From Candidatus Omnitrophota bacterium (GTDB lineage Bacteria > Omnitrophota > Gorgyraeia > Zapsychrales > JANLHA01), in the NCBI GenBank assembly GCA_963662715.1, contig OY759724.1, positions 2,843,339-2,907,338 of the forward strand: 64,000 nt of DNA. The letters are read 5' to 3'. Below the pieces are notes generated by a model that did no database searches, had not been told where the DNA came from, and saw only the letters and a program-made list of their open reading frames with translations. This document shows, piece by piece, positions 42,698 through 58,789 of the stretch (its first letter is position 1; every line of letters starts with the position of its first letter). Position numbers and translations under genes: made by a program.

Positions 42698-42744
42698 TAG
42701 CCGGGTGTTTTCATCCATCTGCCCATAAGACAAGCGAGTCCAGG

Positions 42745-44151
42745 ATGAAACAGATATATCTATTGTATATTAATGCCGCCAGCGAAAGTTCCCTGGATTA
42801 CTCGGGATTGCTGCAGACGAATTTATTAAAGGTTGTCCCGAAACTGGGGCTGCAGTATTTACACGCGGTATTGCATCAGCATGATTTTCCGGCTGTATTA
42901 TTGGACCAGGAGATAGAACCTTTAACCCTTAAAATATTGTCTGATAAATTTCATGAACAGCCGCCTCTTTTCGTCGGGATTTATTCGTCGGAAAGGATCC
43001 GAAGCACGACGATCCGTTTTATTCAACAACTCCTGGCCGCCTGGCCGAGACTGATGATTATTGTCGGCGGGCCGGATTATTTCAGCTATGAAAGCTATCT
43101 TAAAGCCGGGTGCACCTTTGTCTGCCACGGGGAAGGGGAAAAAACAATTGTCGAAATAGCGAAATATGCCCGGGGCGAATTGGCCCTGGATGCCTTAAAA
43201 GGGGTTTATTACAGGAAAGGGACGGAGGTTGTCCGGACAGAACCGCAGGAGCTGATCGATGACTTGGACCGGCTTCCGTTTCCCCGAAGAGAGCATCTTC
43301 ACGCATACGCGGATTTTCATTATCTCGGCATGGTTAAGCCTTATGTGCACATGATAACATCCCGCGGCTGCGGCTGTTCCTGCAGTTATTGTTCGTCCCC
43401 TTATATCTGGGGCAGGCGGGTGCGGAGGAGAAGCATCGAGAATATCCTGGCTGAGATTGATGATCTTGTCGGCCGATGCCAGATCCGCTATATCAGTTTT
43501 AAAGATGACCGGTTCTTTTCGAATTTGGCTTGGCTGAGGACATTTTGTCATGCTTTGATTGAAAGAAAATATTCGTTGCGTTTTAACTGCAGCGCCTGCC
43601 CGTCAGATTTTAAAAATGACTGGGAAGAGAAGATTGACCTGCTGAAGGCGGCCGGCTGTGATGCCCTTATTTTGGGCCTGCAGTCAACAGACAAATCCAT
43701 ACTGCAGAAGATTCACCGTAATCCCGATGAAGTGGACTTTTTGAAGCCAGTTATCGCTTATGCGAATAAAGTCCGCCTTTTTACGATTGTGGAATTCATA
43801 TTCGGGCTGCCGGGGGATACGGAACAATCGCTTCAGCAGACGATTTCGTACGTGATGAAGATAAAGCCCTATTTTATCCAGTTCAACAGGCTGATGCTTT
43901 TTAAGGGGTCGGAGTTGAACGCTTTGAGGGAAGAGCCGGCGCCCTTTTGCGCCCTGACAACCCGGCAAATTAAAAGAATCATTTTAAAGGGATATCTGCG
44001 TTTCTATCTGCACCCGCAGGTTTTTTATAAAAATATCCGATATGTTTTGCGGCATAACCCCCGCTGGTTCGTGAACGCCCGGCGCGTGTGGTTATATCCC
44101 TTACTGCTCGGTTATAACTATTTTCACAGCATGAAAACTTTACATCGGTAA
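42745..44151 (+). CDS. Cobalamin-binding-domain radical SAM enzyme (class B-like)
   Basis: 468 aa. N-terminal B12-type domain (IVGGPDYFSYESYLKAGCTFVCHGEGE). Radical SAM motif CGCSCSYC. Confidence 0.8.
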   Translation: MKQIYLLYINAASESSLDYSGLLQTNLLKVVPKLGLQYLHAVLHQHDFPAVLLDQEIEPLTLKILSDKFHEQPPLFVGIYSSERIRSTTIRFIQQLLAAWPRLMIIVGGPDYFSYESYLKAGCTFVCHGEGEKTIVEIAKYARGELALDALKGVYYRKGTEVVRTEPQELIDDLDRLPFPRREHLHAYADFHYLGMVKPYVHMITSRGCGCSCSYCSSPYIWGRRVRRRSIENILAEIDDLVGRCQIRYISFKDDRFFSNLAWLRTFCHALIERKYSLRFNCSACPSDFKNDWEEKIDLLKAAGCDALILGLQSTDKSILQKIHRNPDEVDFLKPVIAYANKVRLFTIVEFIFGLPGDTEQSLQQTISYVMKIKPYFIQFNRLMLFKGSELNALREEPAPFCALTTRQIKRIILKGYLRFYLHPQVFYKNIRYVLRHNPRWFVNARRVWLYPLLLGYNYFHSMKTLHR

Positions 44152-44156
44152 AATTC

Positions 44157-45077
44157 ATGAACATCGCTTTTATGAAAAAAACACAAATCCTCCTGGCCCC
44201 GGCTCTGACCGCGGTTATTTTCGTGATCCTGTTCCGCTATATTTCTCTGACGGAGGTCGTCCGGATAACGAAAAATTGCCATATCAATATCCTTTTGTGG
44301 ACTTTAGTGGTCTCGGCAGGGTCAAATATTTATATCAATGCCTTAAGATTTCAGAATATTTTAAGGCAGCTGGGAATCCCTCTTTCGCTTTTCGAAACAA
44401 TACTGATCAAAGGGGGCGGTTCGCTGTTTAAAGTTTTTATGCCGGCCCGCAGCGGTGAATTCGTCATGATGGCTTACCTGAAACGGGTGAAAGACCTGTC
44501 TTATATCCAGTCCTTTTTTCTGATCATATCCGAATACATTCTCAACCTTTCGGCGCTGATCCTTTTTTTTCTTACAGGCTTCTTGTGGTCAATCAACCAG
44601 CCTGCTGTGAACCGGCATACCCTGGCCATGATTATTATGTTCCCCACGGAAGAAAATCCTTCTTCCCGGGGATTCCGGGCCGTTTTTCATAAATGGCTTC
44701 CGGATATTAAAGACAACGTCAGCCTTTTCCGCCGATTATGTTTCCGGAAAACCATTATTTTTTATACGCTGCTGTATATGGGAGCTGAAGTGCTGACATT
44801 TTATCTGTTGGCACACGCCCTGAACATTTTTATTCCTTTCGGTATTGTTCTCATGCTGATTCCGGCAGCCTTTTTGCTGAGCAGCCTTCCGCTCACTTTG
44901 GGAGGGCTGGGCCTGAGAGAGTGCGCCGTATTGTTTTTATTTTCATCCTATGCCCCGGCAGAAGAGCTGTTGTCTTTGGGCGTTCTTTATTCTTTTGTTG
45001 AAAACCTTTTCCCTTTGCTGATTAACGGATCTCTGTCCGGTCTTTTTCTTTCCAGGTTATTGAAAGGGGAGCAATGA
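44157..45077 (+). CDS. Flippase-like / LPG-synthase-TM-region family membrane protein
   Basis: 306 aa, multiple TM segments. Same family pattern as 29459..30499. Confidence 0.5.
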   Translation: MNIAFMKKTQILLAPALTAVIFVILFRYISLTEVVRITKNCHINILLWTLVVSAGSNIYINALRFQNILRQLGIPLSLFETILIKGGGSLFKVFMPARSGEFVMMAYLKRVKDLSYIQSFFLIISEYILNLSALILFFLTGFLWSINQPAVNRHTLAMIIMFPTEENPSSRGFRAVFHKWLPDIKDNVSLFRRLCFRKTIIFYTLLYMGAEVLTFYLLAHALNIFIPFGIVLMLIPAAFLLSSLPLTLGGLGLRECAVLFLFSSYAPAEELLSLGVLYSFVENLFPLLINGSLSGLFLSRLLKGEQ

Positions 45078-46066
45078 TAAGTTATAAAAAAATTTTTCCA
45101 ATTGTCGGACATATTTTGGCCGCTAAGATGTGTCATATCCCGTGCCCCCTGGCGGTCCGCTGGGCGTTAACTTATCGGTGCAATCAGCAGTGTTTGTATT
45201 GCGGTATCCCGCACCGGAAGGATTACTATGAATTGGATGCGGCCGGTATTTGCCGTATGCTGGATGATTTTGTGCGCCTGGGCACACAATGGATTTCTTT
45301 CTCCGGAGGGGAGCCTTTGCTCCGGGACGACCTTCCTGCGATTGTGAAGCATGCGAAAAAGCGGGGTTTTTTTGTGACACTCAGTACGAACGGAAGACTG
45401 CTGCCGGAAAAAATCCGGGATTTGCGATGTGTCGACCGCATCAAAATAAGCCTGGACGGCCCTCAAGATGTCCATGACCGCATCAAAGGCCAAGGGTCTT
45501 TTCAAAAGGTCATGGAGGCTTTGGCCTTATGTCAGGAACAGGCTATCCCGGTTGCTGTGGATTGTGTCATTTCGAAATTCAACGCCGATGTCATTGAGGA
45601 ATGTCTTGGGATCGCTGAGGCCCGTCATATCCCGATATCCTTTCAGCCGGCGACGATAAGGCGGTTGCCCCGGGATGAGGAGGAGGATTATCTGGTGCCG
45701 GCGGATAAATACAGAACGATTATAGAGCTTTTAATTGCCTTGAAAAAGAAGGGAGCCCGCATAGAAAACTCCGTGGCCGGGTTGCGCCATCTTGGGCATT
45801 GGCCTGTTCCTCGGTCTATCCCGTGTTCCATGGGATTATTAAGTTATAATGTGGAACCCAACGGGATCATCGGGGCTTGCATCGATAAATCCTATATTTA
45901 TGTGGGGCGGGATGAATCGCAAGGGCAGGAGTCCCTTCGGACAATCTTAAAAAACGCGAAGCCGCCGTCTTCTTGCCGGGAATGCTGGTGCGGAGCTATG
46001 GTGGAATTTAACCTGATAAATTCTTTCAACCTGGATGCTATTTTTAATCGCATGAAATATTCATGA
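45074..46066 (+). CDS. Radical SAM enzyme with SPASM/twitch C-terminal domain
   Basis: 330 aa. CNQQCLYC near the N-terminus. C-terminal Cys-rich tail (CSMG...CIDKSY...CRECWC). ATGA overlap with the upstream gene. Confidence 0.75.
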   Translation: MISYKKIFPIVGHILAAKMCHIPCPLAVRWALTYRCNQQCLYCGIPHRKDYYELDAAGICRMLDDFVRLGTQWISFSGGEPLLRDDLPAIVKHAKKRGFFVTLSTNGRLLPEKIRDLRCVDRIKISLDGPQDVHDRIKGQGSFQKVMEALALCQEQAIPVAVDCVISKFNADVIEECLGIAEARHIPISFQPATIRRLPRDEEEDYLVPADKYRTIIELLIALKKKGARIENSVAGLRHLGHWPVPRSIPCSMGLLSYNVEPNGIIGACIDKSYIYVGRDESQGQESLRTILKNAKPPSSCRECWCGAMVEFNLINSFNLDAIFNRMKYS

Positions 46067-46107
46067 TCCGGATTTTTATCCATTAGCGGTCTATAGCCGA
46101 TATTCTT

Positions 46108-47322
46108 ATGTTAAAAAAGTTTCCTAAAAGAAATATTTTTATATCCGAAAAAGAAATAAAAGCGGTATTGTCTTTTCTGTTTCGTCCGCGAGTCAGGGCT
46201 GAAGATTTTGTCAGAAAGTTTGAAGATAATTTCAGTCGGCACATCGGGGTAAAAGAGGCTATCGCTGTCGGCTCGGGCCGGTTCGCTTTGTCTTTAATCC
46301 TGAGATCCCTGGGAGTGCAAAGAGGCGATGCTGTTTTACTCAGCGCCTATAACTTTACCGGTGTGCCCGAATCGTTACGGCAGGAGGGGGTGGAGCCTCA
46401 TTTTGTTGACGCCGATCCGTCAACTTATCAAATGAACATCGATCTGATCCCGCAAAAAATCACTGAAAAAACTAAAGTTCTCCTGGCCACGCATCTTTTC
46501 GGGCAGCTATCCGACACGGACCGGCTGGCGGATCTGGCCCGGGAAAATCACCTCTACCTCATAGAAGATGCCGCGCAGGCTTTGGGAAGCTTTTATAAAA
46601 ACAGGCCGGCAGGAACACGGGCCGATATCGGGCTGTTCAGTTTTACGGGCAGTAAATTGCTTAATACGTCCTGGGGTGGGATGATCGTTACAAACAACGC
46701 AGACTTAGCCGGAAAGATCCGTCAGGAGTTGTCCCGTTATCCTGCTCTCGGCACAGCCCAGGCCGTTTTCTTCAGGGTGAAAACTTATGCCTATGCTTTG
46801 GCGACCCAGCGTGCTTTTTACAGTTATCTGGTCTATCCTCTGACGGTGTTGTTTTATTTGTGCGGTATTGACCTTTTTGCGGCTTATAAAATGTTTGACC
46901 GCCGGGTGTCTCCCTACAAGAGGAACGGGCTGAATAATTTGCAGGGGTATCTGGGCCTCGATCAGATGGACCGGCTTGAACAGTTTATAAAAAAGCGGAA
47001 AGAGTACGCCGGCAAACTTCTGGCCCAATTGGCCCCTGCGATATCTTTGCAGAAAGGCCCCCCGGACGCCGACCCGTGTTATTTTATGATCCCCCTGAAA
47101 GCAAAACACAAGGGGGAGGCCTATAAAAAACTGCTCCTTAAAGGGATTGACAGCAATATTCAGTATGCGGCCGATTGTTCGGGATTGACAGGGGTTCATA
47201 ATCCGTGCGCAGCGGATTTATCCCAACATATTTTAACGATGAATTTGCCTTTGCGCATGAGTGATCAGGATATAAATTATATGGCGCAATCCATAAATGA
47301 TTTAAAAGATATGTTAGAATGA
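46108..47322 (+). CDS. DegT/DnrJ/EryC1 (ArnB-like) PLP-dependent aminotransferase
   Basis: 404 aa. Putative PLP-lysine in FSFTGSKLLNTSWGGMI. Confidence 0.8.
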   Translation: MLKKFPKRNIFISEKEIKAVLSFLFRPRVRAEDFVRKFEDNFSRHIGVKEAIAVGSGRFALSLILRSLGVQRGDAVLLSAYNFTGVPESLRQEGVEPHFVDADPSTYQMNIDLIPQKITEKTKVLLATHLFGQLSDTDRLADLARENHLYLIEDAAQALGSFYKNRPAGTRADIGLFSFTGSKLLNTSWGGMIVTNNADLAGKIRQELSRYPALGTAQAVFFRVKTYAYALATQRAFYSYLVYPLTVLFYLCGIDLFAAYKMFDRRVSPYKRNGLNNLQGYLGLDQMDRLEQFIKKRKEYAGKLLAQLAPAISLQKGPPDADPCYFMIPLKAKHKGEAYKKLLLKGIDSNIQYAADCSGLTGVHNPCAADLSQHILTMNLPLRMSDQDINYMAQSINDLKDMLE

Positions 47323-47443
47323 AACGGTATAAATTTTTCAGCCTTAAAAAGTTTTATCTGAAAAATGCAAAAGCTGTTTGTCCGGGGGGCTTCCTTTCTC
47401 CGGGATATCCCATATGGATACAAAAGGCGGGTAACGGGAATTT

Positions 47444-48730
47444 ATGACTAAAAAAGTTGAAATGATTTTTTTGTTCCTTTGCTTCCTGGGGGCATTTTAT
47501 TTGCGCCTCCAGGCGTCCCTGAATGTTCCCTATGCTTCCGATGAAACTCTTAAGATCCGCGTCGCGAAAGAAATTAACTTAAAGAATTTTGAGCTCCCTT
47601 TGGGTAATGAAGAAACGCATAATGGCCCTTTGCTGCTTTATGTGATGAAGGCGAGCATGAGTCTTTTAGGAGAAAACAGAATGGGGGTGCGTCTTCCGTC
47701 ATTGATTTACAGTTTATTGACTTTGTGGCTTTTATATGTTTTGGTTAAGGAATCCCTGGATCAAAGAACGGCGATGTTGTCTCTGATTCTGCTGAGCCTG
47801 AGTCAGCTTCATATCGGCTTTACAAGAATTGTCGATGAAAACGGCTTCCTGATATTTTTTGTTGTCCTGACGCTTTTATTTATTCAAAAAGCCTTGCATG
47901 CCGGGCAAAAAAGATATATTTTTTTCGCAGGTTTATCCTTAGGGATGGGAAGCTTGGTGAAAGGCACCATGCTGACGATCCTTCCGGGAATCCTTTTATA
48001 TCTCTGGCTGTATAAAGGACACCGCCACCCTTTCTCCGGCAGAGATATTTTGCTGTTTCTTATAACCTGTGGGCTTGTCGTGTCTCCCAGTGTTTATTGG
48101 GACATGACTCACGGTTATACGGATTTTAAATATCATCTGGATAAATCAGGATTTTTTGCCTTCAGTTTTATTTCTTTGGCCCTTTTTTTGGGGGAATTAT
48201 TTATATGGAACTTGCATTACATCGATGAGATATCGCTGTCGCAAATCGTGTCTTATGAATATCCTTTTTGCAACTGGCTTATGGGGTTGATCTGTTTGGC
48301 GGGGGCGACATACTTTCTGAATAACAGAAAGAACGGGTTTACGGATTTGCTGTTGTGGATTTTTTGGTCTAATTTTATTTTTTTCTCTCTGGTCAGGTCA
48401 AACTCGGGAGGGGGGGCGGCTTTTCATCTGGATAATTTCTGGTGGGCTATTGTGGCTGTTATCCCGGGTTTTATCCTGGGGGGAGCCTTTCTTGCGGATT
48501 TATGCCGGAGATACAAACCTGTACGATATTTCATCCTCCCGTTGATACTGATTTATTTTGGGATAAACGGCATAAGTTTTGTCCGTTTCCCGGCCCTTTG
48601 CTGGATCCCCAACGATCGGGTAAAAATTTTGGAATTAAGTAAGACAGCCCAAAAGTACCGGGAGGAAGGTTTGCGGGAGGAAGCTTTAAAGGTGGAGCAA
48701 TATATCCAGGGCCGATACTATGGTTTGTGA
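47444..48730 (+). CDS. GT-C fold membrane glycosyltransferase (ArnT / PMT_2 / GT39-83-like)
   Basis: 428 aa polytopic protein. Acidic first-loop motif (ASDETLKIR) and the TM layout of undecaprenyl-phosphate-sugar-dependent transferases. Confidence 0.55.
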   Translation: MTKKVEMIFLFLCFLGAFYLRLQASLNVPYASDETLKIRVAKEINLKNFELPLGNEETHNGPLLLYVMKASMSLLGENRMGVRLPSLIYSLLTLWLLYVLVKESLDQRTAMLSLILLSLSQLHIGFTRIVDENGFLIFFVVLTLLFIQKALHAGQKRYIFFAGLSLGMGSLVKGTMLTILPGILLYLWLYKGHRHPFSGRDILLFLITCGLVVSPSVYWDMTHGYTDFKYHLDKSGFFAFSFISLALFLGELFIWNLHYIDEISLSQIVSYEYPFCNWLMGLICLAGATYFLNNRKNGFTDLLLWIFWSNFIFFSLVRSNSGGGAAFHLDNFWWAIVAVIPGFILGGAFLADLCRRYKPVRYFILPLILIYFGINGISFVRFPALCWIPNDRVKILELSKTAQKYREEGLREEALKVEQYIQGRYYGL

Positions 48731-50273
48731 AACAAAGACAATCAACATTTGGGATAAAAAGTTTATTTCTTGGATAACCGTTCTGTCTTTCGGAGTGTAT
48801 ATGTTCGGGACATACATTTTGAGCGTTCTCAGCCGTTCTGCATTTTTTGACGTATCTCTCTTCGGATCAAGCCAGGAAAACCCTGTCACGACCGTCATAA
48901 GCTTTCTTGTTTTCGGGGCCGGGTTCCTTATGCTTTTCATCCTTCCCGGGTGGATTTTTTCTCTTCATTTCAAGAGGTTGAAAAGCGATATGACGGTGTT
49001 TCTCGCTGTCTCCCTGGCGGCAAGTGTTATCGGCTTAATTTTTTCTGTGACGGTTTATAAAATCATCGGAGGGGAGACGTTAAACAGGACGAATTTTCTT
49101 GTGATATTGATCATGCTTCTGGGCGCCGGCTTGATTTCCTTACGGGCGCGGTTCCCCCAGCATAAAAACGCTCCGGGAGTGGCCCGGGTTTCCCTGCCCC
49201 GCATATCCGCTGTTTTCGTTTTTATCCTGATCCCTTTAATATTTCTTTCAACCTTGGGCCATAAACTTATAGACGGGAAACCGGTGTCTTTTGATTACAG
49301 TCAAGAGGCTGTCCTGGCCATCCCCTTAGGACATCAGTCAGACGCTCTGGAAACATTCGGTTTGGCGCATAGCCTCAAAGACCGTATCCTGCCTTATTGG
49401 GATTTGGAGTATGCCGACACTTTTGGCTTCGCCTTCACTGATCCTCCGTTGTATCCGTTTCTTTGTCTGTTTGCCGTATTGCTTTTTGGAGAAAGTTTTG
49501 CCACATTGTCTCTGATGTCGGCGGGGTTTATTATCCTTATGTTTTTGTTTGTTTGGGGACAGGGAACCCGTCCGTCTCCTCTGCGTTTTTTTATCAGCCT
49601 CATGTTTATGCTGTCATATCTATATTTTTTCCGAAACAATACTGTCGTTTTTGTGCTGCTTGAACATTTTTTTATGCTGCTGATATTCCTGACCTATATT
49701 TTCCTGTTGCGGGAAAACTACGGAATATTTTTTGTGTTCGCAACTTTGGCAACTTTGACGAGATTTTACGGTATTTTTTTTGTGTTGCTGGGATGGGGGG
49801 CCTGGGCTTTATTCTATAAAGACCGCAGGGATAAATCGTTCTGGATTCTGTCCCGGTACGGTTTTGTCGTGGCCGGTATCCTTTCCGGCGTGGCTTTCAT
49901 CGGGGTTTTGACCGGACACCTGGACACGTATCTAAAATGCATTTTAATCGAACACTTTAACAGGCTGGATTATTTTTCCGCACTGTCGGGCATTTATCCG
50001 GGAAACGTTGTCTCCCTGCCGGCAGCCTCCTTGCGCCAGGGCGTGCAATTCCTGGCCTGGTGTTTATATAGTACTGTATTTACGTTCCCGGTTCTGATAT
50101 ATTTCAGTAAGAGCAGAGAGGAAAATTTTTATTCATTTATCTGTCTTGTTTACTGTTTTCTTGTCGTTTCCAGTAAATACAGTTTGCCTAGATATGTTAT
50201 CCCGATGCTGCCTTTGGTGGCCATGATTTTTGCCAGTAAAGTTGAGCGGTTCATGGGAGCCGCTCTTCCCTAA
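48720..50273 (+). CDS. Hypothetical polytopic membrane protein (possible GT-C fold or polymerase-like)
   Basis: 517 aa, ~12 hydrophobic segments. Overlaps the upstream gene by 11 nt. Confidence 0.4.
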   Translation: MVCETKTINIWDKKFISWITVLSFGVYMFGTYILSVLSRSAFFDVSLFGSSQENPVTTVISFLVFGAGFLMLFILPGWIFSLHFKRLKSDMTVFLAVSLAASVIGLIFSVTVYKIIGGETLNRTNFLVILIMLLGAGLISLRARFPQHKNAPGVARVSLPRISAVFVFILIPLIFLSTLGHKLIDGKPVSFDYSQEAVLAIPLGHQSDALETFGLAHSLKDRILPYWDLEYADTFGFAFTDPPLYPFLCLFAVLLFGESFATLSLMSAGFIILMFLFVWGQGTRPSPLRFFISLMFMLSYLYFFRNNTVVFVLLEHFFMLLIFLTYIFLLRENYGIFFVFATLATLTRFYGIFFVLLGWGAWALFYKDRRDKSFWILSRYGFVVAGILSGVAFIGVLTGHLDTYLKCILIEHFNRLDYFSALSGIYPGNVVSLPAASLRQGVQFLAWCLYSTVFTFPVLIYFSKSREENFYSFICLVYCFLVVSSKYSLPRYVIPMLPLVAMIFASKVERFMGAALP

Positions 50274-50289
50274 ACCCCGGTCATTTAAA

Positions 50290-51765
50290 ATGAACTTTAT
50301 TCGTAATATTATTCTTATTAGAGCGGGCTATCTGCAAAGGAAAAAATTCGAACATCCTCTGCACTGTCCGCCGCCCTTGTCCCTGAAGTATGCCAAAGCC
50401 CTTCTGGAGACAAGCGGGGAATACAATGTTAAAATTGTCGACGGGTTGATCGACTGCGTGCCGGATGAAAACATCCTGAAGATGCTGTCTCAGTGGCCGG
50501 CACAATTTGTTTTTATTGAAATTGCTTCGCCGGCCAGCGAAAAGGGCCTGGCTTTATCTCAAAAGATCAGGAGCCAGTTCCAGGATATGGTTGTCGTGGC
50601 CGGAGGGTCGGATGTCAGTGAACGGTATCAGTTTTATCTGACGGCGAAGGACACTTTTGATGTCATCCTCCGCGGCGAATTTGAAAATGAATTAACCGTG
50701 CTGGTCAAACAGCTGCAAACAGCTGATAAGAAAGAAGATGTTCAAAAAATATACCTGGAAGAGAGAAACCGGCAGGTTTTGCTGGTCGAAGACCTGGATG
50801 TCCTGCCCTGTCTTGCCTGGACCAGGGCGGAATTAAAAAAATACCCTTATCGTTATCCTTTGAAATATGCCCGGCCGCTGTTGTCAGGTTATGTCTCGAC
50901 TTCGAGAGGGTGCCGGCACGGGTGCACCTTCTGTTCGCCGTCAGTCCGCAAAAGTTATGGAAAAAAACTGAGGCTGCGGTCTGCTTCGCATGTCGTCGCA
51001 GAGATAGAATATCTGCAGACATTGGGTGTCAATCTTGTCTCTTTTGAGGATGATGATTTTACCGGCAGCCGGGATCATTTACTTTCCATCTGTGAAGAGC
51101 TGATGAAAAAGAACACGAACATAAAATGGACCTGCCATGCCAGGATTGATGAAGTGTCCCCGGACATATTGAAAATTATGCGGCAGGCCGGCTGTATCTT
51201 AATTTTGTTTGGAGTAGAATCCGGTTCGCAGAACATTATACACACCCTGCATAAGAATTTTTCTGAAAGGGACTGGGGGGACCGGGCGCGGGAAACCTTC
51301 CTCAATGCAAGAGAGGCGGGTATCGCCACGTGCGCATTGTTCATGGTGGGGAACCCCGGTGAGACCCGCGATGATGTTAATGCCAGCATTCAACTGGCTT
51401 TTGACTTGCATCCGGATTTTATAAAAGTTCATAATTTCACGCTTTATCCCGGCTCAAAGGATTACGGCCGATACCAGTCCCAGCATGCCCCGGTTCTTTC
51501 TCAGCATCATTATCTGCAGCCGATCATTAATGTGAGCTGTTTGACAAATACCGAATTAAAAATTTTACAGCGGGAATTCTACCGCCGGTTTTTCTTCCGG
51601 GCCTCTTTTCTCATAAACCATACTTTAGGTTACGCTGTTTTTTATTTGCTGAATTGGCCGTGGAGCTTTAAGATGCTCGGAGAATTGTTGAGTTTTTTGT
51701 TCAGCAGGCATAAAAATGAGTCTCTTAAGGGGAACGACGCAGAGAATAGAAAAGGGGGGCTTTAA
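50290..51765 (+). CDS. Cobalamin-binding-domain radical SAM enzyme (class B-like)
   Basis: Radical SAM motif CRHGCTFC after an N-terminal Rossmann-like domain. Start moved to the ATG at 50290 (MNFIRNI), not the track's 50230, which overlaps the upstream gene by 44 nt. Confidence 0.75.
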   Translation: MNFIRNIILIRAGYLQRKKFEHPLHCPPPLSLKYAKALLETSGEYNVKIVDGLIDCVPDENILKMLSQWPAQFVFIEIASPASEKGLALSQKIRSQFQDMVVVAGGSDVSERYQFYLTAKDTFDVILRGEFENELTVLVKQLQTADKKEDVQKIYLEERNRQVLLVEDLDVLPCLAWTRAELKKYPYRYPLKYARPLLSGYVSTSRGCRHGCTFCSPSVRKSYGKKLRLRSASHVVAEIEYLQTLGVNLVSFEDDDFTGSRDHLLSICEELMKKNTNIKWTCHARIDEVSPDILKIMRQAGCILILFGVESGSQNIIHTLHKNFSERDWGDRARETFLNAREAGIATCALFMVGNPGETRDDVNASIQLAFDLHPDFIKVHNFTLYPGSKDYGRYQSQHAPVLSQHHYLQPIINVSCLTNTELKILQREFYRRFFFRASFLINHTLGYAVFYLLNWPWSFKMLGELLSFLFSRHKNESLKGNDAENRKGGL

Positions 51766-51766
51766 G

Positions 51767-53650
51767 ATGACCGATTTTATGGGAATGCTGTCATGGGATA
51801 AAGGGCTAAAGGCTGGCACCCGCCAGAAAATTATGAAAAATGATGATGTCCCGTCCCCTGCCGGCATTGAGACAAATCTGAACGGAGGGGGAGCGTTTAT
51901 CGGGGCGACAGGCTCTGTCGGAGCCCCCGGAACCTTCAGGGGCAAAGAGGTTCTGGGATACCATGTGATGTTCAACGGGCAGTTATACAACACCGAGGAA
52001 CTGTTCGCCGAAGGAGGAAGATCGGAAGAACGGCCCGCTTTGCCGAATCCTCCTGAACTTATAGCCGCGATGTTCCGGAAATACGGGGAACAATGTTTTT
52101 TGAGACTGAACGGAGTCTATTCCCTGGCCCTGCTTGATCCGGGGCGCAGGCTGTTTTTTCTGGGGACAGGAAAACTCAATCCCCAGACGATTTACTATCT
52201 TTATCAAGAGGAATGTCTTTATTTTGCAGATAAAATTGAAACCCTGGTAAGAATATCCGGCATGCCGCCGGAGCTTGACCATCAGTTCCTGCCCAAATAT
52301 TTTGCGCACGGCTTTGTCCCCAGCCCGCACACATTGCTGAAAGGAATACGCAAAATACCCACAGGAAGTTTTCTGCTTTTCCAGGAAGGCGGGCGGCTGT
52401 CTTTACAGCGTTACTGGGATATGCAATTCAGCGGGAAGGATGTCCCGGAACTCAGAGAAAAAGATTACAGCCGGAATATTTATAAAACATTGATCGACAC
52501 CACCCGCAGACGCCTTAATATTGATTCAAGACTGGGCGTGTTTCTAAGCGGAGGTCTTGATTCCGGATCCTTGGTTGCGGTCCTCAGTCAGTTGAAAGAG
52601 GGAAAGCCCCTGCATACCTTTACGGCGATCTTTGACGAGAAATCCTTCAGTGAAGCGAATCAGGCCAAGACTGTCGCGGCTCATTTCGGCACGAAACATT
52701 TTGAAATCCTTCTGACCCCTGAAAAGGCTCTGGAGTTTGTGAGGCGCTTAATCGGGAAAATTGACGACCCGTTTTCTGACGATGATGTCATCTGCGGGGG
52801 GGTGCTGTCCCCGGTCGCCTCTGAGCATGTCGATGACGTTTTCCTGGGAGACGGCCCCGATGAATTATTGATGGGGTACCCGTCCCTTTTAGCTCATAAA
52901 TTGTCCCGCATTTATGAAGCCGTTCCCGGGGCGCTCAGGAGAATTTTTGAGCGGGGGATGAACCGCCTGCCTGTTTCTTATGAATATTGTGCGTTTGACG
53001 CGCGGTTCAGGCAGTTTTTAGGAGGCGTGGGCTACCCGGCGGAACTCCGCGACGCGGCATGGTGGGGCCCTTTCCCGCCCCAGAATCAACCCGGCCTTTT
53101 TCACAGGGATATTCAGGAAAACCTGAACTTTGAATACCGGCAGATTTATTCTGAGGCTTTGGAGGAAATAGCCCGGGGTAATGCACATGGGATCATAGAA
53201 AAGATTTTAACATTATACATTCGGTGCCTGGGTGAACGCTGGTTCATGAAATTGAATGCCGTGAGTCAAAGCACGTCCATTCATTTTAAACTGCCTTACC
53301 TGGATGACCGTTTTGTGGAGTGCGCCAATGCCGTCCCGAGCCGGTATAAACAGAAATCGAAATATATTTTAAGAAAAGCGATGGAGACTGATTTGCCGAA
53401 GAGTATTTTATGGGGACGCAAAAGACCTTTCTTTGTCCCGTTGGCTCTGTGGATGAAGAATAATTTCAGAACATTGATTTTGGATGTCCTGACGGAAACG
53501 AATGTCCTGAAAGCGGGGTTGAACTATTCTTATGTTTCTCATATGCTTCAGCAGCATTTCTCCGGGGAAGCGAATCATGCCAAACAACTGTGGAATATCT
53601 TTATTTATGTGGCATGGGCTATCCGCCTGCCCAAGTGGGGCCGGGACTGA
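51767..53650 (+). CDS. Asparagine synthetase B-family amidotransferase / adenylating enzyme lacking the N-terminal catalytic Cys
   Basis: PP-loop SGGLDSGSLVAVL and AsnB C-domain architecture. Start taken at MTDFMGML, preceded by a GGGGGG SD. There is no Cys at position 2 and none upstream in frame. Confidence 0.75.
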   Translation: MTDFMGMLSWDKGLKAGTRQKIMKNDDVPSPAGIETNLNGGGAFIGATGSVGAPGTFRGKEVLGYHVMFNGQLYNTEELFAEGGRSEERPALPNPPELIAAMFRKYGEQCFLRLNGVYSLALLDPGRRLFFLGTGKLNPQTIYYLYQEECLYFADKIETLVRISGMPPELDHQFLPKYFAHGFVPSPHTLLKGIRKIPTGSFLLFQEGGRLSLQRYWDMQFSGKDVPELREKDYSRNIYKTLIDTTRRRLNIDSRLGVFLSGGLDSGSLVAVLSQLKEGKPLHTFTAIFDEKSFSEANQAKTVAAHFGTKHFEILLTPEKALEFVRRLIGKIDDPFSDDDVICGGVLSPVASEHVDDVFLGDGPDELLMGYPSLLAHKLSRIYEAVPGALRRIFERGMNRLPVSYEYCAFDARFRQFLGGVGYPAELRDAAWWGPFPPQNQPGLFHRDIQENLNFEYRQIYSEALEEIARGNAHGIIEKILTLYIRCLGERWFMKLNAVSQSTSIHFKLPYLDDRFVECANAVPSRYKQKSKYILRKAMETDLPKSILWGRKRPFFVPLALWMKNNFRTLILDVLTETNVLKAGLNYSYVSHMLQQHFSGEANHAKQLWNIFIYVAWAIRLPKWGRD

Positions 53651-53680: not shown

Positions 53681-54979
53681 GTGAGCCGTATATTATTGTT
53701 AAAACCTTACTGGCCTTATCCTTACGGGAAGGGAGAGCATACATATAACCGTATCTGGGCGCCTTTGTCTTTATTGAACTGTGCCGCGATCCTTCAGCAG
53801 TCCGGACACCAGCCTTATATCTTGGATGCCCATGCCCTGCGCATAAAAGCGCGAAAGCTGCGGCCGTATTTACAGGGATTTGAAAAGATCGTTATTTCGT
53901 CTTCCTGTTTGGATAGATGGCAATGCCCCAACATTGATATCACGCCGTTTCTAGAGGCTGTGGAAAATCTCAAACAGGTCACCGCGGAATTTTATGTGAC
54001 AGGGTATCACGGGACAAGGTGTCCTGAGGATATGCTCAGAAAGACGGGAGCGAAAGCGGTCATCCGGGGGGAACCGGAATCCGTTATCCTGGATATTGCC
54101 AGCGGTAAAAGTCTTCAGGATATCCCCGGGATAACTTATGCCGGGCACAGCCGCATTGTTTCGAATCCTGACGCCTGTCTCCCGGATTTAAAAACATTAC
54201 CCGTGCCGGCCTACCGTTTGTTAAACCCCCGGAAGTATTTTTACGAAATCTTGGGCGGAAGATTCGCTTTGCTGGAATACAGCCGGGGATGTCAATACCA
54301 GTGCACATTCTGCAATAAGGTCATGTACGGTTCCGGATTGAGGCTCAAGTCTGCCCGCCAAATGATCGAGGAAATCCGGACCGTCGTCGAAGAATGTCAT
54401 TTCCGTTCCGGGTATTTTATCGATCTGGAATTCCTGTCCGACAGGGAAATGGTGGAGGATATCTGTGATTTTTTTATAACCGAAAATTACGATTTCAGAT
54501 GGTGCTGTCAGACCAGAGTTGACTCTTTGGACGGCGATATCCTGATGAAAATGAAGAAAGCCGGCTGCCAGCTGATTCATTTTGGGGTCGAAAGCGGCAA
54601 GCAGAAATTTTTAAATGAAACACGCAAAGGCTTTAAGCTGGACAGGGCCATGCCGTCAGTTAAACTCTGCAAAGATGCCGGGATAAAAACACTCGCTTTT
54701 TTTATCTTCGGATTTCAGGAGGAAACAGCCCGGGACAGGGCAGAGATACTCGAATACGCAAAGACTTTGGACACGGATTACGTCTCTTTTCATAAAATAT
54801 TCCCTTATGCGCAGGATAATGGAAGTGTCCCGGAATTCCGGCCGGATGAAATAGACGCGTTTATCCGTCAGGCTTTTTTGCAGTATTATTTAAGGCCGGC
54901 GTGCCTGAAAAAATTGGATTTTAATGTTCTGTTGCGCTCTGTGAGGTTGTTATGGGCCCGCATGACCTCATTGTCGTGA
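53681..54979 (+). CDS. Cobalamin-binding-domain radical SAM enzyme (class B-like)
   Basis: 432 aa. GTG start. Radical SAM motif CQYQCTFC. Confidence 0.75.
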   Translation: MSRILLLKPYWPYPYGKGEHTYNRIWAPLSLLNCAAILQQSGHQPYILDAHALRIKARKLRPYLQGFEKIVISSSCLDRWQCPNIDITPFLEAVENLKQVTAEFYVTGYHGTRCPEDMLRKTGAKAVIRGEPESVILDIASGKSLQDIPGITYAGHSRIVSNPDACLPDLKTLPVPAYRLLNPRKYFYEILGGRFALLEYSRGCQYQCTFCNKVMYGSGLRLKSARQMIEEIRTVVEECHFRSGYFIDLEFLSDREMVEDICDFFITENYDFRWCCQTRVDSLDGDILMKMKKAGCQLIHFGVESGKQKFLNETRKGFKLDRAMPSVKLCKDAGIKTLAFFIFGFQEETARDRAEILEYAKTLDTDYVSFHKIFPYAQDNGSVPEFRPDEIDAFIRQAFLQYYLRPACLKKLDFNVLLRSVRLLWARMTSLS

Positions 54980-55009: not shown

Positions 55010-56626
55010 TTGATGAACGATGCGACACTAAAAAAATTTATTGCGGCGGCCGTTTTGCTGTGCATGACATTTTTGATCTTTTTTCATCTGGGACATTATG
55101 CTTTCTGGGATGACGAAGCTATCTGCGCTTTATTCGCCAAATCACTTTTTGAGCATGGGGATACGAGCGCTGTTTCAGGTCATAATCTGATTGCCTTCAA
55201 TGACGGCCGGGAACTGGAAAATCTTCATCAAAGATATGTCCCCCCGCTGCAGTTTTATTTTGCCGCTCCCTTTGTCGGGCAGGGAGGAGGCTCGACCTTC
55301 ATCGCCCGGTTCCCTTTTGCTGTTTGCGGTTTGCTGACGGTTGCCGTTATTTTCCTCTGGCTTTGGAGAAGCCGTGCTCCAGTTTATACCTGGCTTTTGA
55401 TGTCAGCCGGGATATTGGGAAACGTTTCCTTTATCCTCTCCTGTCGGCAATGCCGTTACTATGCCCTGAGCATGCTCCTGACTGTTCTTCTGGCATTTTT
55501 ATATTATTTTAGAACCCCCAAAAAACAGACCGTTTTGGCCATGGCAGGCGTGTCCTTGTTGCTTTTAGCTTCCAATTATTTGTGTTACGCGGCTGTTATG
55601 GGATGTTTGATCATGCATGACATCATCTGGGGCAGGAAGAGGCATGCCTCCAGCCGCTCGGATATTCTCCTTTTCTGGGGTATGCAGCTTTTCCTCGGGG
55701 GCCTCATTGTTTTGACGTATAATCCTTTGGGAAAAAATGTCTGGGATATCTCCTCGGATTCCTGGCTCAGGAACAGAACAGCTTTATTCTTCTGGAATTT
55801 TCGTGATTTGAACAGCTGTGAAATGGGCGTGGGGATTCTTATCGCTTTGTGCCCTTTTTTGTATTTTTACAAAAAAGACCGCCGTTTCCTGCAGTGTCCC
55901 GCTCTTATTGTGACATATATTTTGATCGTATCGTTATTCACCCCGCACCCTTTTGATATGCTGTGGGTCGCTTTTGTCCGTTATTTGTGTCCCTTAATCC
56001 CGCTCTGTATCTATACGGCTGTGCTGGTTATCCAGACTTTATCCGGGCACAGGCGCTGGCTGCTCATTCTTCTGGCTTTTCTGGCCTTCGGGACCAATGT
56101 TTTGCACGGAGGCCCGTTGACCAGGGTCAAACGGCACACAGCTTTCAGCCATGCCGTCGCTCACGGACATTTCCGTTCGACGTTTGTTGAATATTTCAAT
56201 GAATTGTTGACCGCAAGGCCCAATCCGTATCAATTAGTTTCTGACTGGATTAATGGCAACCTGCAGACCGGGGATACGGTCTGGGTCGTGCCGGGATACG
56301 CCAATTATCCTCTTATGTTTCACGCCCCCAAGGTTGTATATGCCTGGCAGCTCACGGAAAAACAAGGGCAGTTTTCGAACCTGCCGGATATTCATTTTAA
56401 AGGTGAGGAATGGCCTGATTACATTATCGCTTTCGGCCCGAACCTTCTGGATGTTTTTGCATTCTTTGAAAATAAAGAGGAGGCCTTTCCCTATGAAATG
56501 ATCGATCAGATAAACATTTTTTGGTCATCCTTGACCCGTCCGGAACTTTTTTGGCATTCATTCCGTGAGATTGAGAATTATTCCCTTGCGACGGAAGCCA
56601 TTTATATTTTTAAGTTTTCAGAATAA
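55010..56626 (+). CDS. GT-C fold membrane glycosyltransferase (ArnT / PMT_2-like)
   Basis: 538 aa polytopic protein. First periplasmic-loop motif FWDDEA, typical of the ArnT/PMT_2 catalytic loop. Confidence 0.55.
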   Translation: MMNDATLKKFIAAAVLLCMTFLIFFHLGHYAFWDDEAICALFAKSLFEHGDTSAVSGHNLIAFNDGRELENLHQRYVPPLQFYFAAPFVGQGGGSTFIARFPFAVCGLLTVAVIFLWLWRSRAPVYTWLLMSAGILGNVSFILSCRQCRYYALSMLLTVLLAFLYYFRTPKKQTVLAMAGVSLLLLASNYLCYAAVMGCLIMHDIIWGRKRHASSRSDILLFWGMQLFLGGLIVLTYNPLGKNVWDISSDSWLRNRTALFFWNFRDLNSCEMGVGILIALCPFLYFYKKDRRFLQCPALIVTYILIVSLFTPHPFDMLWVAFVRYLCPLIPLCIYTAVLVIQTLSGHRRWLLILLAFLAFGTNVLHGGPLTRVKRHTAFSHAVAHGHFRSTFVEYFNELLTARPNPYQLVSDWINGNLQTGDTVWVVPGYANYPLMFHAPKVVYAWQLTEKQGQFSNLPDIHFKGEEWPDYIIAFGPNLLDVFAFFENKEEAFPYEMIDQINIFWSSLTRPELFWHSFREIENYSLATEAIYIFKFSE

Positions 56627-56766
56627 CAATATGTTGATGTTGTTTTTGTCCGATATCTGATATAAAACAAAAAATGCATGGTATCCTTGAATATATGAGG
56701 TAAAATTTAAGATTAGACTTGATAAAGATATCCTGGCGATATCCGTTGTATGATTTATGTGAACAT

Positions 56767-57471
56767 ATGGACAGACAAGCCACCTCCATTTCGATTGTTC
56801 TTCCTGTTTTTAATGAGGCCGGTAATATTGAAACGACCATGCAGGAAACTGTGAACTTTTTTAAGCAGGAAAAATTTTTCCCCGAATATGAGATTATTAT
56901 TGTTGATGACGGCAGCACGGATAATTCTCCCCGAGTCTTGGACGGGCTCTCGGGAAAAATCGAACGGTTGTCTGTTGTCCGGCATGCCCAAAATCGGGGC
57001 TACGGAGCCGCTTTAGTGACTGGAATAAAGAAAGCCCGGCATCCCTGGATTCTGCTCATGGATGCAGACGGCCAGTTTAAAATCAATTCCATCCTGGACA
57101 TGATCCCCCGCATGAACAGCTGTGATGTCCTTGCCGGTTACCGGCGGAAGAGAACCGATTCCCGGATAAGGATTTTGCTGGGGAAGACTTATACTTATCT
57201 TGCGTTTTTGCTTTTTAAAGTAAAATTAAAGGATATTAACTGCGGATTTAAACTTCTGAGAAAAGATATCATTGATATTGATGCCGTGAGTTCTCATGGC
57301 GGGGCTTTTTATACGGATTTTTTTATCAAGACCCAGAAAAAAGGCTGCCGGATTGAGCAGGTCCCGGTCGAACATTTCCCCCGTTTAAAAGGGAAACAGA
57401 CCGGAGCGAGCTTCAAAGTTGTTTTGGCGGCGATGATTGATGTTTTTCGATTATTTTTTATTGATAGATAA
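56767..57471 (+). CDS. GT2 glycosyltransferase, polyprenol-phosphate sugar transferase type (ArnC/DPM1-like)
   Basis: ISIVLPVFNEAGNIETTMQETVNFF...YEIIIVDDGSTDNS. Start set at the first ATG (56767). The track begins at an upstream TTG (56719). The exact start is uncertain. Confidence 0.75.
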   Translation: MDRQATSISIVLPVFNEAGNIETTMQETVNFFKQEKFFPEYEIIIVDDGSTDNSPRVLDGLSGKIERLSVVRHAQNRGYGAALVTGIKKARHPWILLMDADGQFKINSILDMIPRMNSCDVLAGYRRKRTDSRIRILLGKTYTYLAFLLFKVKLKDINCGFKLLRKDIIDIDAVSSHGGAFYTDFFIKTQKKGCRIEQVPVEHFPRLKGKQTGASFKVVLAAMIDVFRLFFIDR

Positions 57472-57562
57472 TTTCTGCAAGATTGCTTACAATGTCTTTT
57501 GGGAAAACAGGGGCAGATGGCCTGTCCGTTAGAAAACGACCATCAATTTTAAAGAGTTTGTT

Positions 57563-58789
57563 ATGACGATAGGATTCATGCGGCGTATCGATTATTGGTT
57601 CGGGATCCCGGCGTGTTTTTTTCTTTCCATATTTCATGCCGTATTTAAAAAGCTGGCCCGTCCCAAACAGCCTCCGGCACCCATCAGAAAAATTCTCTTT
57701 TTAGAGCTGTCCGAGATCGGAAGCACCATCCTGTCTTATCCTGCCATCACCAAGGCCAAAGAGCTGTTCCCGGAGAGCGAGCTTTTTTTCTGGATTTTTG
57801 AATCCAACCAGGATGCTGTGCATGTCCTGAAAGTTATTGACCGAAAAAATGTTTTAACTGTTAGGACAAAAAATTTGTTCATCTCCGCAAAAGACCTGAT
57901 AAACAATTTACGGAGGATCCGCAGAGAAAAAATCGATGTTGTCCTTGACTTGGAATTGTTTTCCAGGTTCAGTTGTGTTTTATCCTTCCTGTCCGGAGCC
58001 CCCCGCCGGGTCGGGTTTCACTCATTCGCCCAGGAGGGGCTTTATCGCGGGAATCTTCATACGCACAGAGTCTCTTATAACCCTTACCAGCACATTTCCG
58101 TGAATTTTCTTTCTCTTGTCAGCGGGATCAATGCGCCGCTAGATCAAGTGCCCCTTGTCAAAGAATATTATGAAAAGAAGGGCTGCGATATCCTCCTGCC
58201 GAAGTTAAAATCAACGGGAGACGGGAAGAAAGCCATTTGGAAAAAGTTGAAACAGATTGCTCCGGATATTGACGAAAAGAAAACAATTGTTGTTATCCAT
58301 CCCGGGATCAAGGAAGCTTTGCCTTTGCGCCAATGGGCCTTAGGCCACTATTTGGAACTGACCCGGAGGTTGCTCCTGAATCCCAATGTCTTTATCGTTA
58401 TGGCCGGGGTGCTTTATGAATCGCTGGATAAAGATATTGTCGAGCAGTTGCGTATGCCCCGTTTGATAAATCTAATAGGGAAGACCTCGATCCCGGAGTT
58501 GATTGATTTGTTCAACGTATCTGATATGCTGATCAGCCATGACGGCGGTATTATTCATATCGCGTCTTTAACCCCCGTTCATATCATTGCCCTTTTCGGC
58601 CCGGAGACGCCTTCCTTGTACCAGCCGTTGACAGACAATAAGACAATTTTATATCGGCCTTTGTCCTGCAGCCCTTGTTTAACGGCCTACAATCACCGGA
58701 TTTCCATGTGCCGTGACAATCAGTGCGTTCGGGAGATTACTGTCGAAGAGGTTCTGGAAAAGGCTTTGTGTTCTTTGCCGGATGCCTGA
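57563..58789 (+). CDS. GT9 family glycosyltransferase (ADP-heptose:LPS heptosyltransferase-like)
   Basis: 408 aa. Typical GT9 two-Rossmann layout (...DVVLDLELFSRFS...VIHPGIKEALPLRQW...LISHDGGIIHIAS...). Confidence 0.7.
   Translation: MTIGFMRRIDYWFGIPACFFLSIFHAVFKKLARPKQPPAPIRKILFLELSEIGSTILSYPAITKAKELFPESELFFWIFESNQDAVHVLKVIDRKNVLTVRTKNLFISAKDLINNLRRIRREKIDVVLDLELFSRFSCVLSFLSGAPRRVGFHSFAQEGLYRGNLHTHRVSYNPYQHISVNFLSLVSGINAPLDQVPLVKEYYEKKGCDILLPKLKSTGDGKKAIWKKLKQIAPDIDEKKTIVVIHPGIKEALPLRQWALGHYLELTRRLLLNPNVFIVMAGVLYESLDKDIVEQLRMPRLINLIGKTSIPELIDLFNVSDMLISHDGGIIHIASLTPVHIIALFGPETPSLYQPLTDNKTILYRPLSCSPCLTAYNHRISMCRDNQCVREITVEEVLEKALCSLPDA

Follow-up and report, generated by a model that had tools for sequence, protein, structure and literature searches.

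The 64,000-nucleotide stretch of DNA considered here, referred to below as the window, comes from a Candidatus Omnitrophota bacterium (GenBank assembly GCA_963662715.1, contig OY759724.1, positions 2,843,339 to 2,907,338 of the forward strand). It carries an open reading frame (ORF) for a protein of the asparagine synthetase (AsnB) family, which starts at ATG 51767, ends with the stop codon TGA 53648-53650, and whose translation begins MTDFMGMLSWDKG. The gene lies directly behind a gene for a B12-binding radical S-adenosylmethionine (rSAM) enzyme, within a long series of genes predicted to act on glycans (Table 1). The Pfam family Asn_synthase covers residues 239-617 of the protein (E=3.5e-58), while GATase_7 matches only partially (E=8e-12, residues 65-161, from profile position 24), as does GATase_6. 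Judged from its sequence, this is an AsnB-family enzyme that has lost its glutaminase site, keeps its adenylation and catalytic residues intact, and holds a remodelled pocket. The original prediction for this locus, of an ORF with an SGGLDSG PP-loop, an AsnB C-domain and no N-terminal Cys, agrees with the coordinates, the Pfam matches and the alignments.

The start codon is not mis-annotated, because in nine orthologues the protein starts at this very position, with sequences of the types MTDFYG, MSHFCG, MPPFYG, MKDFLG, MPDFLG and MNTFFG. On the 5' side, the frame is closed by a stop codon (TGA 51689-51691), which is followed by the residues VFCSAGIK and then by MSLL at ATG 51716. The original prediction had also stated that no in-frame Cys exists upstream. 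Taken literally this is incorrect, as a TGT codon lies at 51698-51700, within the coding region of the upstream gene, but no usable Cys is available, since no ATG, GTG or TTG occurs between the in-frame stop and this codon. An MCG motif upstream of the ORF is absent in all forward frames, so the claim of a Cys-less enzyme stands. Two alternative readings of the N-terminus were rejected. A longer ORF from ATG 51716 would add 17 residues without a Cys and overlap the upstream gene, and the orthologues start at MTDF. A register in which F-x-G is equated with M-C-G (two of the orthologues hold FCG) fails because the position varies between M, Y, L, F and C. In the MAFFT alignment, M1 and G6 are in register with the relatives that bear the Cys.

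The signals around this start codon also bear on how the gene is expressed. The TAA of the upstream radical-SAM gene ends at 51765 and the ATG follows 1 nt later, the gaps flanking the AsnB-like gene being of 1 nt and 30 nt. In the orthologous locus L001, the ends of the pair share 4 nt. The ribosome-binding site and the abutting TAA suggest that translation of the AsnB-like gene is coupled to that of the B12-rSAM gene.

The loss of the glutaminase site was examined in an alignment of 62 sequences, composed of 9 members of the clade to which the protein belongs and 53 Cys-bearing relatives. Residue 2, which is the position of the Cys nucleophile (Cys1 after removal of the Met), is Thr in the window protein and T, S, P, K or N in the orthologues. 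Asn-Gly-Glu at the position of Asn74/Glu76 is present in all 53 Cys-bearing relatives, whereas the Asn is kept in 3 of the 9 clade members and the Glu in none. The HRGPD and RLSIID motifs are absent from the clade, the Arg49/HRGPD regions cannot be aligned, and the equivalent of Asp98 is Pro. The glutaminase residues are thus not conserved with respect to AsnB, and the protein is not a standard AsnB. Conservation is inverted between the two halves of the protein. In residues 1-64 identity is 20% within the clade versus 51% among the Cys-bearing relatives, while the figures are 58% versus 48% in the PP-loop core (residues 236-380) and 51% versus 27.5% in residues 381-500. This inversion indicates a dead glutaminase joined to a synthetase under selection, and it rules out a pseudogene as well as an error of annotation.

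The fold of the N-terminal half seems nevertheless to have been preserved. The AlphaFold2 model, which was built on the 62 sequences, reaches a pLDDT of 91.6 and a pTM of 0.93, with lower confidence only at residues ~20-60 (pLDDT 44-86 in the N-terminal 64 residues), and its order of strands and helices in the N-domain agrees with the N-terminal nucleophile (Ntn) glutaminase fold. Secondary Foldseek matches restricted to this domain are the glutaminase domains of GFAT, PurF and GlmS (E~1e-8), which argues that the Ntn fold has been kept as a scaffold.

According to these data, it is scarcely credible that the gene encodes an ordinary glutamine-hydrolysing asparagine synthetase with a missed start, or that it is a decaying pseudogene, and the alignments refute both. 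In favour of the former, the JGI automatic annotation names some clade members 'asparagine synthase (glutamine-hydrolysing)', but this label is wrong: every residue of the glutamine site has been lost, the one in-frame Cys codon on the 5' side is not preceded by a start codon, the nine orthologues share the Cys-less start, and the protein misses every curated NCBIfam cut-off. A pseudogene is contradicted by the intact ORF, the strongly conserved C-domain and the confident fold. Automatic labels of this kind mislead for Cys-less AsnB-like proteins; the PGAP name for the clade members is only 'asparagine synthase-related protein'.

The synthetase half shows the opposite picture. The PP-loop, D365, the pair E366-Y371 and K552 are invariant in the 62 aligned sequences. 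The segment G361-D-G-P-D365-E366-L-L-M-G-Y371 aligns with S-G-E348-G-S-D351-E352-V-F-G-G-Y357 of AsnB, so that D362 occupies the position of Glu348 in AsnB and of Tyr348 in beta-lactam synthetase (BLS). Mutagenesis of PesC has demonstrated that the Glu-Tyr dyad is needed for activation of the carboxylate (PMC13060819).

Around these conserved residues, the alignment shows a pocket that differs from that of the Cys-bearing relatives. Position 497 changes from an Asp found in 100% of them to Asn, position 498 from an Arg found in 77% to Ala, and position 508 from an Arg found in 100% to Lys. In the loop that precedes the GDGPDELLMGY segment, Ser340 becomes Asp, Pro343 an invariant Cys, Thr344 Gly and Tyr345 Gly. 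Besides D340, the clade has gained the acidic residues D339, D429, E384 and E395, where the relatives show various residues. This remodelled pocket would fit a new, possibly cationic, substrate. The same loop holds an invariant D-D-D-V-I-C-G-G stretch (52778-52801, residues 338-345), which places three Asp near Cys343 in the presumed substrate loop; together they could serve as a binding site for a metal or for a cationic substrate, or Cys343 could act covalently.

This clade is small. In a search of 5.8 billion proteins, full-length matches of 42-53% identity were obtained for ~10 clusters, and the next matches fell to ~30% identity with 88% query coverage and the N-terminus unaligned. Of the 120 best matches, 99 start with MC, and the close group does not. 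When a profile of the clade was scanned with HMMER against 1.84 billion cluster representatives, five fell in the clade range (four at 931-1061 bits and a fragment at 543) and the next match below them reached 453 bits. All clade members of the genome collection come from metagenome-assembled genomes (MAGs), which are labelled Candidatus Omnitrophota except for one labelled Planctomycetales. The clade is a new, small, Omnitrophota-specific subfamily with a new genomic context, and the system is not mentioned in an Omnitrophota genome preprint. It is not, however, a new kind of enzyme, as descendants of AsnB in which the use of glutamine has been abandoned and the adenylating half preserved are already known and recur often.

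Losses of the Cys are also found outside the clade. It is missing in ~14 full-length sequences (~10%) of the next 145 cluster representatives, which start with MSGI, MGGI, MDGI, MSAIFG or MFGFCG, and several of them show further decay of the glutaminase motif set. With approximately one in ten of the nearest metagenomic representatives lacking the Cys, AsnB-like enzymes that work independently of glutamine have probably received too little recognition as a class. Ser, Gly, Asp, Phe or Asn replaces Cys2 in the representatives P0122, P0124, P0142, P0147, P0171, P0176, P0192, P0210, P0229, P0244, P0250 and P0259, metagenomic long-form AsnB-like proteins whose glutaminase motifs are partly decayed; these losses appear to be independent and uncharacterised. 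The statement in the original prediction that the known Cys-less enzymes derived from AsnB are BLS and the carbapenam synthetase CarA was incomplete, since the lasso cyclases and ligase-type homologues such as PdmN lack the Cys as well.

Comparison with characterised members of the family places the protein nearest to AsnB itself and to long-form amidotransferases. Among the sequences of the Protein Data Bank (PDB), the clade profile matches AsnB best (1.6e-29), followed by TsnB9 (7e-27), BLS (1e-9) and CarA (1e-6). When the model is compared with PDB structures by Foldseek, TsnB9 ranks first (7YLZ, E=1.4e-25, TMq 0.71), with BLS, human ASNS and E. coli AsnB at ~1e-19 to 1e-21 and CarA at ~1e-16 to 1e-17. 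All curated NCBIfam models stay below their cut-offs, including the best match TIGR03108 (255.2 bits versus 816.9, beginning only at residue 66), TIGR01536 (210.1 versus 267.1), NF006949 (111 versus 499), the lasso cyclase model NF033535 (118.9 versus 525) and the macrolactam cyclase model NF033561 (33.7 versus 300).

With AsnB (1CT9) and human ASNS (6GQ3), the protein shares the Ntn N-domain followed by a PP-loop domain, the SGGLDS sequence, the Mg-binding Asp, the Glu-Tyr dyad and the Lys equivalent to K449. Unlike them, it lacks equivalents of Cys1, Arg49, Glu76 and Asp98, shows PFSDDDVICGG instead of the aspartate-binding loop YDVTTIRAS, and holds the ~70-100-residue insert of the long form. 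TsnB9, a hydroxyamidotransferase of the trichostatin pathway, is also a long-form AsnB-type protein and represents the closest solved structure, and it acts on a bulky carboxylate that is not an amino acid; by the depositor's name and the literature title, however, it obtains its nitrogen via the N-terminal domain, and identity is only 15-16%. The XrtA/PEP-CTERM amidotransferases of TIGR03108 and those of the WbpS/WbtH type resemble the protein in their long form of ~620-640 aa and in that the nearest relatives adjoin GT2 or GT-C glycosyltransferase genes, but they keep MCG and the full glutaminase motif set, which it lacks. For the closest Cys-bearing relatives, too, the genes belong to glycan loci and adjoin GT2 or PMT_2 genes.

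The original prediction had raised the closure of a ring as one option, and an intramolecular lactam-forming cyclase, similar to BLS, CarA or the lasso cyclases, would join the carboxylate of a sugar-like or amino-acid-like intermediate to an amine within that intermediate. A retained N-domain without Cys is common to BLS (1JGT), CarA (1Q15), the lasso cyclases and the protein under study, as the PP-loop is to BLS and CarA, and Foldseek detects BLS (E~4e-21) and CarA (~5e-17). The thienamycin cluster offers a similar gene pairing, in which the CarA homologue ThnM accompanies the three B12-radical-SAM enzymes ThnK, ThnL and ThnP. Nevertheless, ring closure of this type is disfavoured and has to be regarded as improbable. 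In the alignments with the PDB sequences, the motif reads L-T-G-Y345-G-S-D-L-L-F-G-G in CarA and L-T-G-Y348-G-A-D-I-P-L-G-G-M in BLS, and L-G-D362-G-P-D in the protein, so that the catalytic Tyr of both is an Asp here; the E366/Y371 dyad, absent from BLS and CarA, is present; and the sequence is much more distant from theirs than from AsnB. The gene content of the window argues in the same direction. In a Pfam scan covering the ORFs of at least 150-180 aa, neither CEAS, a CarB crotonase, CarC, a recognition element (RRE) for peptides that are made by the ribosome and modified after translation (RiPPs), nor a leader protease was found in the window, and precursor-sized gaps are absent. A RiPP or lasso peptide pathway was accordingly rejected for want of a precursor, an RRE and a protease and for profile scores far under the cut-offs, and a carbapenem or thienamycin-like pathway for the absence of a crotonase, CarC and the catalytic Tyr.

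A different precedent is provided by PdmN of the pradimicin pathway, an enzyme with Ser at its N-terminus that couples the carboxylate of a polyketide to D-Ala or D-Ser. FdmV, which has the Cys, is by contrast an amidotransferase; in AsnB homologues, a non-Cys N-terminus correlates with ligase activity (bioRxiv 10.1101/2025.10.30.685158). The protein shows both features by which PdmN-like ligases are recognised in that work, a non-Cys N-terminal residue and an intact synthetase domain. Compared by description, PdmN-type ligases (including the proposed TlnF/Tln4) share with it the non-Cys N-terminus and a predicted coupling of an acyl-adenylate to an organic amine. They differ in that they belong to actinomycete type-II polyketide clusters and start with Ser, while the clade shows a variable residue 2 and a glycan context.

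Table 1. Features of the AsnB-like gene and its surroundings (positions refer to the window)
Feature	Coordinates	Strand	Basis or remarks
Upstream part of the operon: three B12-rSAM, two DegT aminotransferases, flippase-like LPG_synthase_TM, 330-aa rSAM, PMT_2 GT-C	38386..48730	+	
Polytopic membrane protein, 11 transmembrane-like segments, no Pfam match	48720..50273	+	Conserved in 8-gene operon
B12-binding radical-SAM gene, directly upstream of the AsnB-like gene	50230..51765	+	Pfam; synteny
Ribosome-binding site GGGGGG	51754..51759	+	7 nt 5' of ATG 51767
AsnB-family ORF, 627 aa	51767..53650	+	Soluble, no transmembrane-like segments; AlphaFold2 model
Vestigial class-II (Ntn) glutaminase-fold domain, ~residues 1-190, predicted scaffold	51767..52336	+	Partial Pfam match, model, Foldseek
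Degenerate N-terminal 64 residues, in the place of Cys1, HRGPD and Arg49-Leu-x-Ile-x-Asp of relatives	51767..51958	+	Only MxxFxGxxSW kept
FNGQLYN, what is left of the NGEIYN motif for glutamine binding; Gln72 in place of Glu76	51971..51991	+	Alignment
PP-loop SGGLDSG (ATP pyrophosphatase motif), residues 261-267	52547..52567	+	Invariant; aligns with AsnB 234-SGGLDSS
Clade-specific loop PFSDDDVICGG	52769..52801	+	Replaces EPxADSSxIPTY (Cys-bearing relatives) and YDVTTIRAS (AsnB)
GDGPDELLMGY, from G361	52847..52879	+	D365 = Mg-binding Asp351; E366/Y371 = Glu-Tyr dyad of asparagine synthetase type
Clade-specific motif RDAAWWGPFPP, in the long-form insert	53048..53080	+	Invariant in clade; alignment
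MKLNAVS, in place of KVDRxSM of Cys-bearing relatives	53246..53266	+	Alignment
GRKRPFFVPL	53414..53443	+	Invariant K552 aligns with catalytic Lys449 of AsnB
Second B12-binding radical-SAM gene	53681..54979	+	Pfam; adjacent in L002/L008, L004
Polytopic membrane protein, 538 aa, divergent GT-C (GT39/ArnT-like) glycosyltransferase	55010..56626	+	Some homologues carry PF13231 and are named GT39/ArnT-like
GT2 of polyprenyl-phosphate-sugar synthase type (ArnC/PpgS-like), then GT9 (heptosyltransferase-like)	56719..58789	+	GT9 also linked in L004, L009

The proposal of a glycan/lipid tailoring island, also part of the original prediction, is well founded, as the region holds DegT aminotransferases, a GT2 of polyprenyl-phosphate-sugar type, GT-C/ArnT-like proteins, a GT9 and many radical-SAM genes. 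Chemistry on polyprenyl-phosphate sugars is suggested by the GT2, GT-C and flippase-like genes. Because the neighbours matched NCBIfam only far below the cut-offs (HpnJ, BchE, ArnC, etc.), their functions are kept here at the level of the family. A signature of horizontal transfer was sought and rejected, since the GC content is uniform (0.46-0.49) across the island and its housekeeping flank.

The association of the AsnB-like gene with its partner is conserved. One particular B12-rSAM gene always lies immediately 5' of it, with products 48-62% identical in five independent loci (L001, L002/L008, L004, L006 and L007), and a polytopic membrane protein always adjoins this pair. The order of eight genes, B12rSAM-DegT-B12rSAM-rSAM-PMT_2-membrane-B12rSAM-AsnB-like, is kept in three MAGs, and a minimal version of the operon consists of the membrane protein, a B12rSAM, the AsnB-like enzyme and a B12rSAM. 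The listed start of the upstream B12-rSAM gene, TTG 50230, makes it overlap the preceding membrane-protein gene by 44 nt; its true start is likely ATG 50290 (MNFIRN...), as homologues align only from residues ~12-24.

The wider surroundings comprise two tandem, co-directional islands on the + strand, at 11425-33807 and 37150-58789, with ~19 radical-SAM genes in 47 kb. These include ~10 B12-binding rSAM, three Zn_ribbon_HMPTM-rSAM, one MiaB-like UPF0004-rSAM and a SPASM rSAM that directly follows a DegT, an arrangement similar to that of BtrN. The two islands also encode four DegT aminotransferases, two flippase-like LPG_synthase_TM proteins, two ArnC-like GT2, several GT-C proteins (PMT_2 and YfhO) and a WbqC-like protein; among the scanned ORFs, acyltransferases and sugar dehydrogenases are absent from them. 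This radical-SAM-rich island is arguably more unusual than the AsnB-like gene itself. The metagenome contigs L016, L017 and L018 carry islands with GT-C, DegT, B12-rSAM, SPASM-rSAM and GDSL-lipase-like/TPR genes and without an AsnB-like gene, which suggests a widespread and undescribed class of envelope-glycan tailoring loci.

The reading that we tentatively favour, at somewhat less than even confidence, is that the AsnB-like protein would be a glutamine-independent, ATP-dependent intermolecular amine ligase, catalysing an accessory step in an envelope-glycoconjugate pathway of Omnitrophota. We infer from the island that an intermediate of the glycoconjugate serves as substrate, and from the features listed below that the nucleophile is an organic amine. 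In this mechanism, the PP-loop domain would bind ATP and Mg2+ and adenylate a carboxylate that either belongs to a cytoplasmic intermediate (a sugar or a polyprenyl-phosphate-sugar) or is to be attached to one. A nitrogen nucleophile from a source other than glutamine would then attack the resulting acyl-AMP to yield an amide. That nucleophile would be an organic amine, in a ligase-type reaction like that of PdmN, most plausibly the amino group installed by the DegT aminotransferases of the island, and the outcome would be the N-acylation or the amide cross-linking of an amino sugar. Without catalytic activity of its own, the Ntn domain at the N-terminus would remain as a scaffold.

Three arguments, none of them decisive, lead us to prefer an organic amine to free ammonia. 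First of all, to our knowledge the characterised Cys-less homologues of AsnB all use organic amines, which are intramolecular in BLS and CarA, a peptide amine in the lasso cyclases and D-Ala in PdmN. Second, near-invariant residues of the pocket have been replaced and acidic residues gained. Third, the four DegT enzymes would make amino sugars, but the Pfam scan (ORFs of at least 150-180 aa) detected no conventional N-acyltransferase in the window; neither did it detect a UDP-sugar (uridine diphosphate sugar) dehydrogenase, a class-I or separate glutaminase, a crotonase or a RiPP accessory gene.

The main rival of the amine ligase is an ammonia-dependent amidotransferase, which would convert a carboxylate of a sugar or glycolipid (such as a uronic acid, the proposal made for the WbpS/WbtH-type enzymes) into a primary carboxamide with free NH3/NH4+, its glutaminase half having decayed in ammonia-rich anoxic habitats. 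We consider it unlikely, although it deserves serious attention. The synthetase residues are intact, no separate glutaminase was detected among the scanned ORFs, and the Cys-bearing relatives belong to glycan loci, so the ancestral role was probably the amidation of glycans. In addition, C1A mutants of AsnB can use free ammonia. PesC also takes it in place of glutamine (PMC13060819), and both cases make an NH3-dependent enzyme chemically easy. In contrast, the scanned ORFs of the island include neither a UDP-sugar dehydrogenase nor another gene for the formation of uronic acids, and the extensive replacement of the pocket would be needless if only the source of nitrogen had changed. Furthermore, free ammonia is not known to us as the physiological nitrogen source of any characterised AsnB homologue that lacks the Cys. 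The original prediction had put forward ammonia-dependent amidation without considering an intermolecular amine ligase, the reading that precedent favours.

Beyond the ease with which such enzymes accept ammonia, several points weigh against the amine ligase. A candidate carboxylate donor or product is missing, and the argument of the acidic pocket is one drawn from sequence. Since the clade is small, its invariant residues partly reflect shallow divergence. Finally, homologues of the partner rSAM (39-48% identity) are found in similar GT-C/DegT/rSAM islands that lack an AsnB-like gene. This indicates that the AsnB-like enzyme performs an accessory tailoring step and is not an obligate partner, and that the linkage reveals a shared pathway but not which step the enzyme carries out.

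Another PP-loop chemistry, or a non-catalytic role, seems quite unlikely. The options comprise a two-step synthesis of a nitrile, as in PesC, the formation of an amidine on an N-acetyl sugar, the capture of the acyl-adenylate by Cys343 (a thioester or sulfur chemistry like that of LarE), and a structural partnership with the adjacent rSAM enzyme. Enzymes similar to asparagine synthetase have recently been found to make nitriles (PMC13060819), and in LarE, another PP-loop enzyme, a carboxylate becomes joined to a Cys of the enzyme itself (PMC6594144). All clade members have Cys343, at a position where the Cys-bearing relatives hold Pro, and the suggested translational coupling with the radical-SAM gene would suit a structural partnership. 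However, nothing specific points to any one of these options, and the complete set of amide-forming catalytic residues has been kept, which argues against a purely structural role.

If the protein is indeed an amine ligase, the AsnB scaffold reaches from secondary metabolism (beta-lactams, lasso peptides and pradimicin) into the tailoring of envelope glycans in an uncultivated phylum, and the enzyme provides a biochemical entry point to an island with ~19 radical-SAM genes and four DegT. In a more specific version of the amine-ligase reading, which we regard as doubtful, the clade would catalyse the amide-forming step of an undescribed envelope-glycan pathway of Omnitrophota, joining amino sugars made by DegT and rebuilt by B12-rSAM enzymes to a carboxylate, perhaps in a complex with the coupled rSAM or via a covalent intermediate on Cys343. 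This version would imply a new modification of sugars, and would give the AsnB scaffold a new catalytic role in the primary biogenesis of the envelope, not in antibiotic or RiPP pathways.

Other genes of the window were also noticed. Just upstream of the glycan island, a 293-aa protein (8538-9419, + strand) holds a TIR effector domain of the CAP12/Pycsar type (Pfam 1e-10) and matches the PADLOC candidate system PDC-S35 (8e-13), so it is possibly an anti-phage defence gene. At the end of the window with lower GC content (0.42), a 659-aa AAA_15/AAA_21 ATPase (61610-63589, + strand) matches defence ATPases of the OLD, AbiLi, AriA, GajA and PtuA types (PADLOC, E~1e-20 to 1e-23). On the - strand, a gshA-like gene (GshA family glutamate-cysteine ligase) and gshB (glutathione synthetase) are adjacent at 3754-6005, a glutathione pathway in the genome of an Omnitrophota bacterium that is probably anaerobic.

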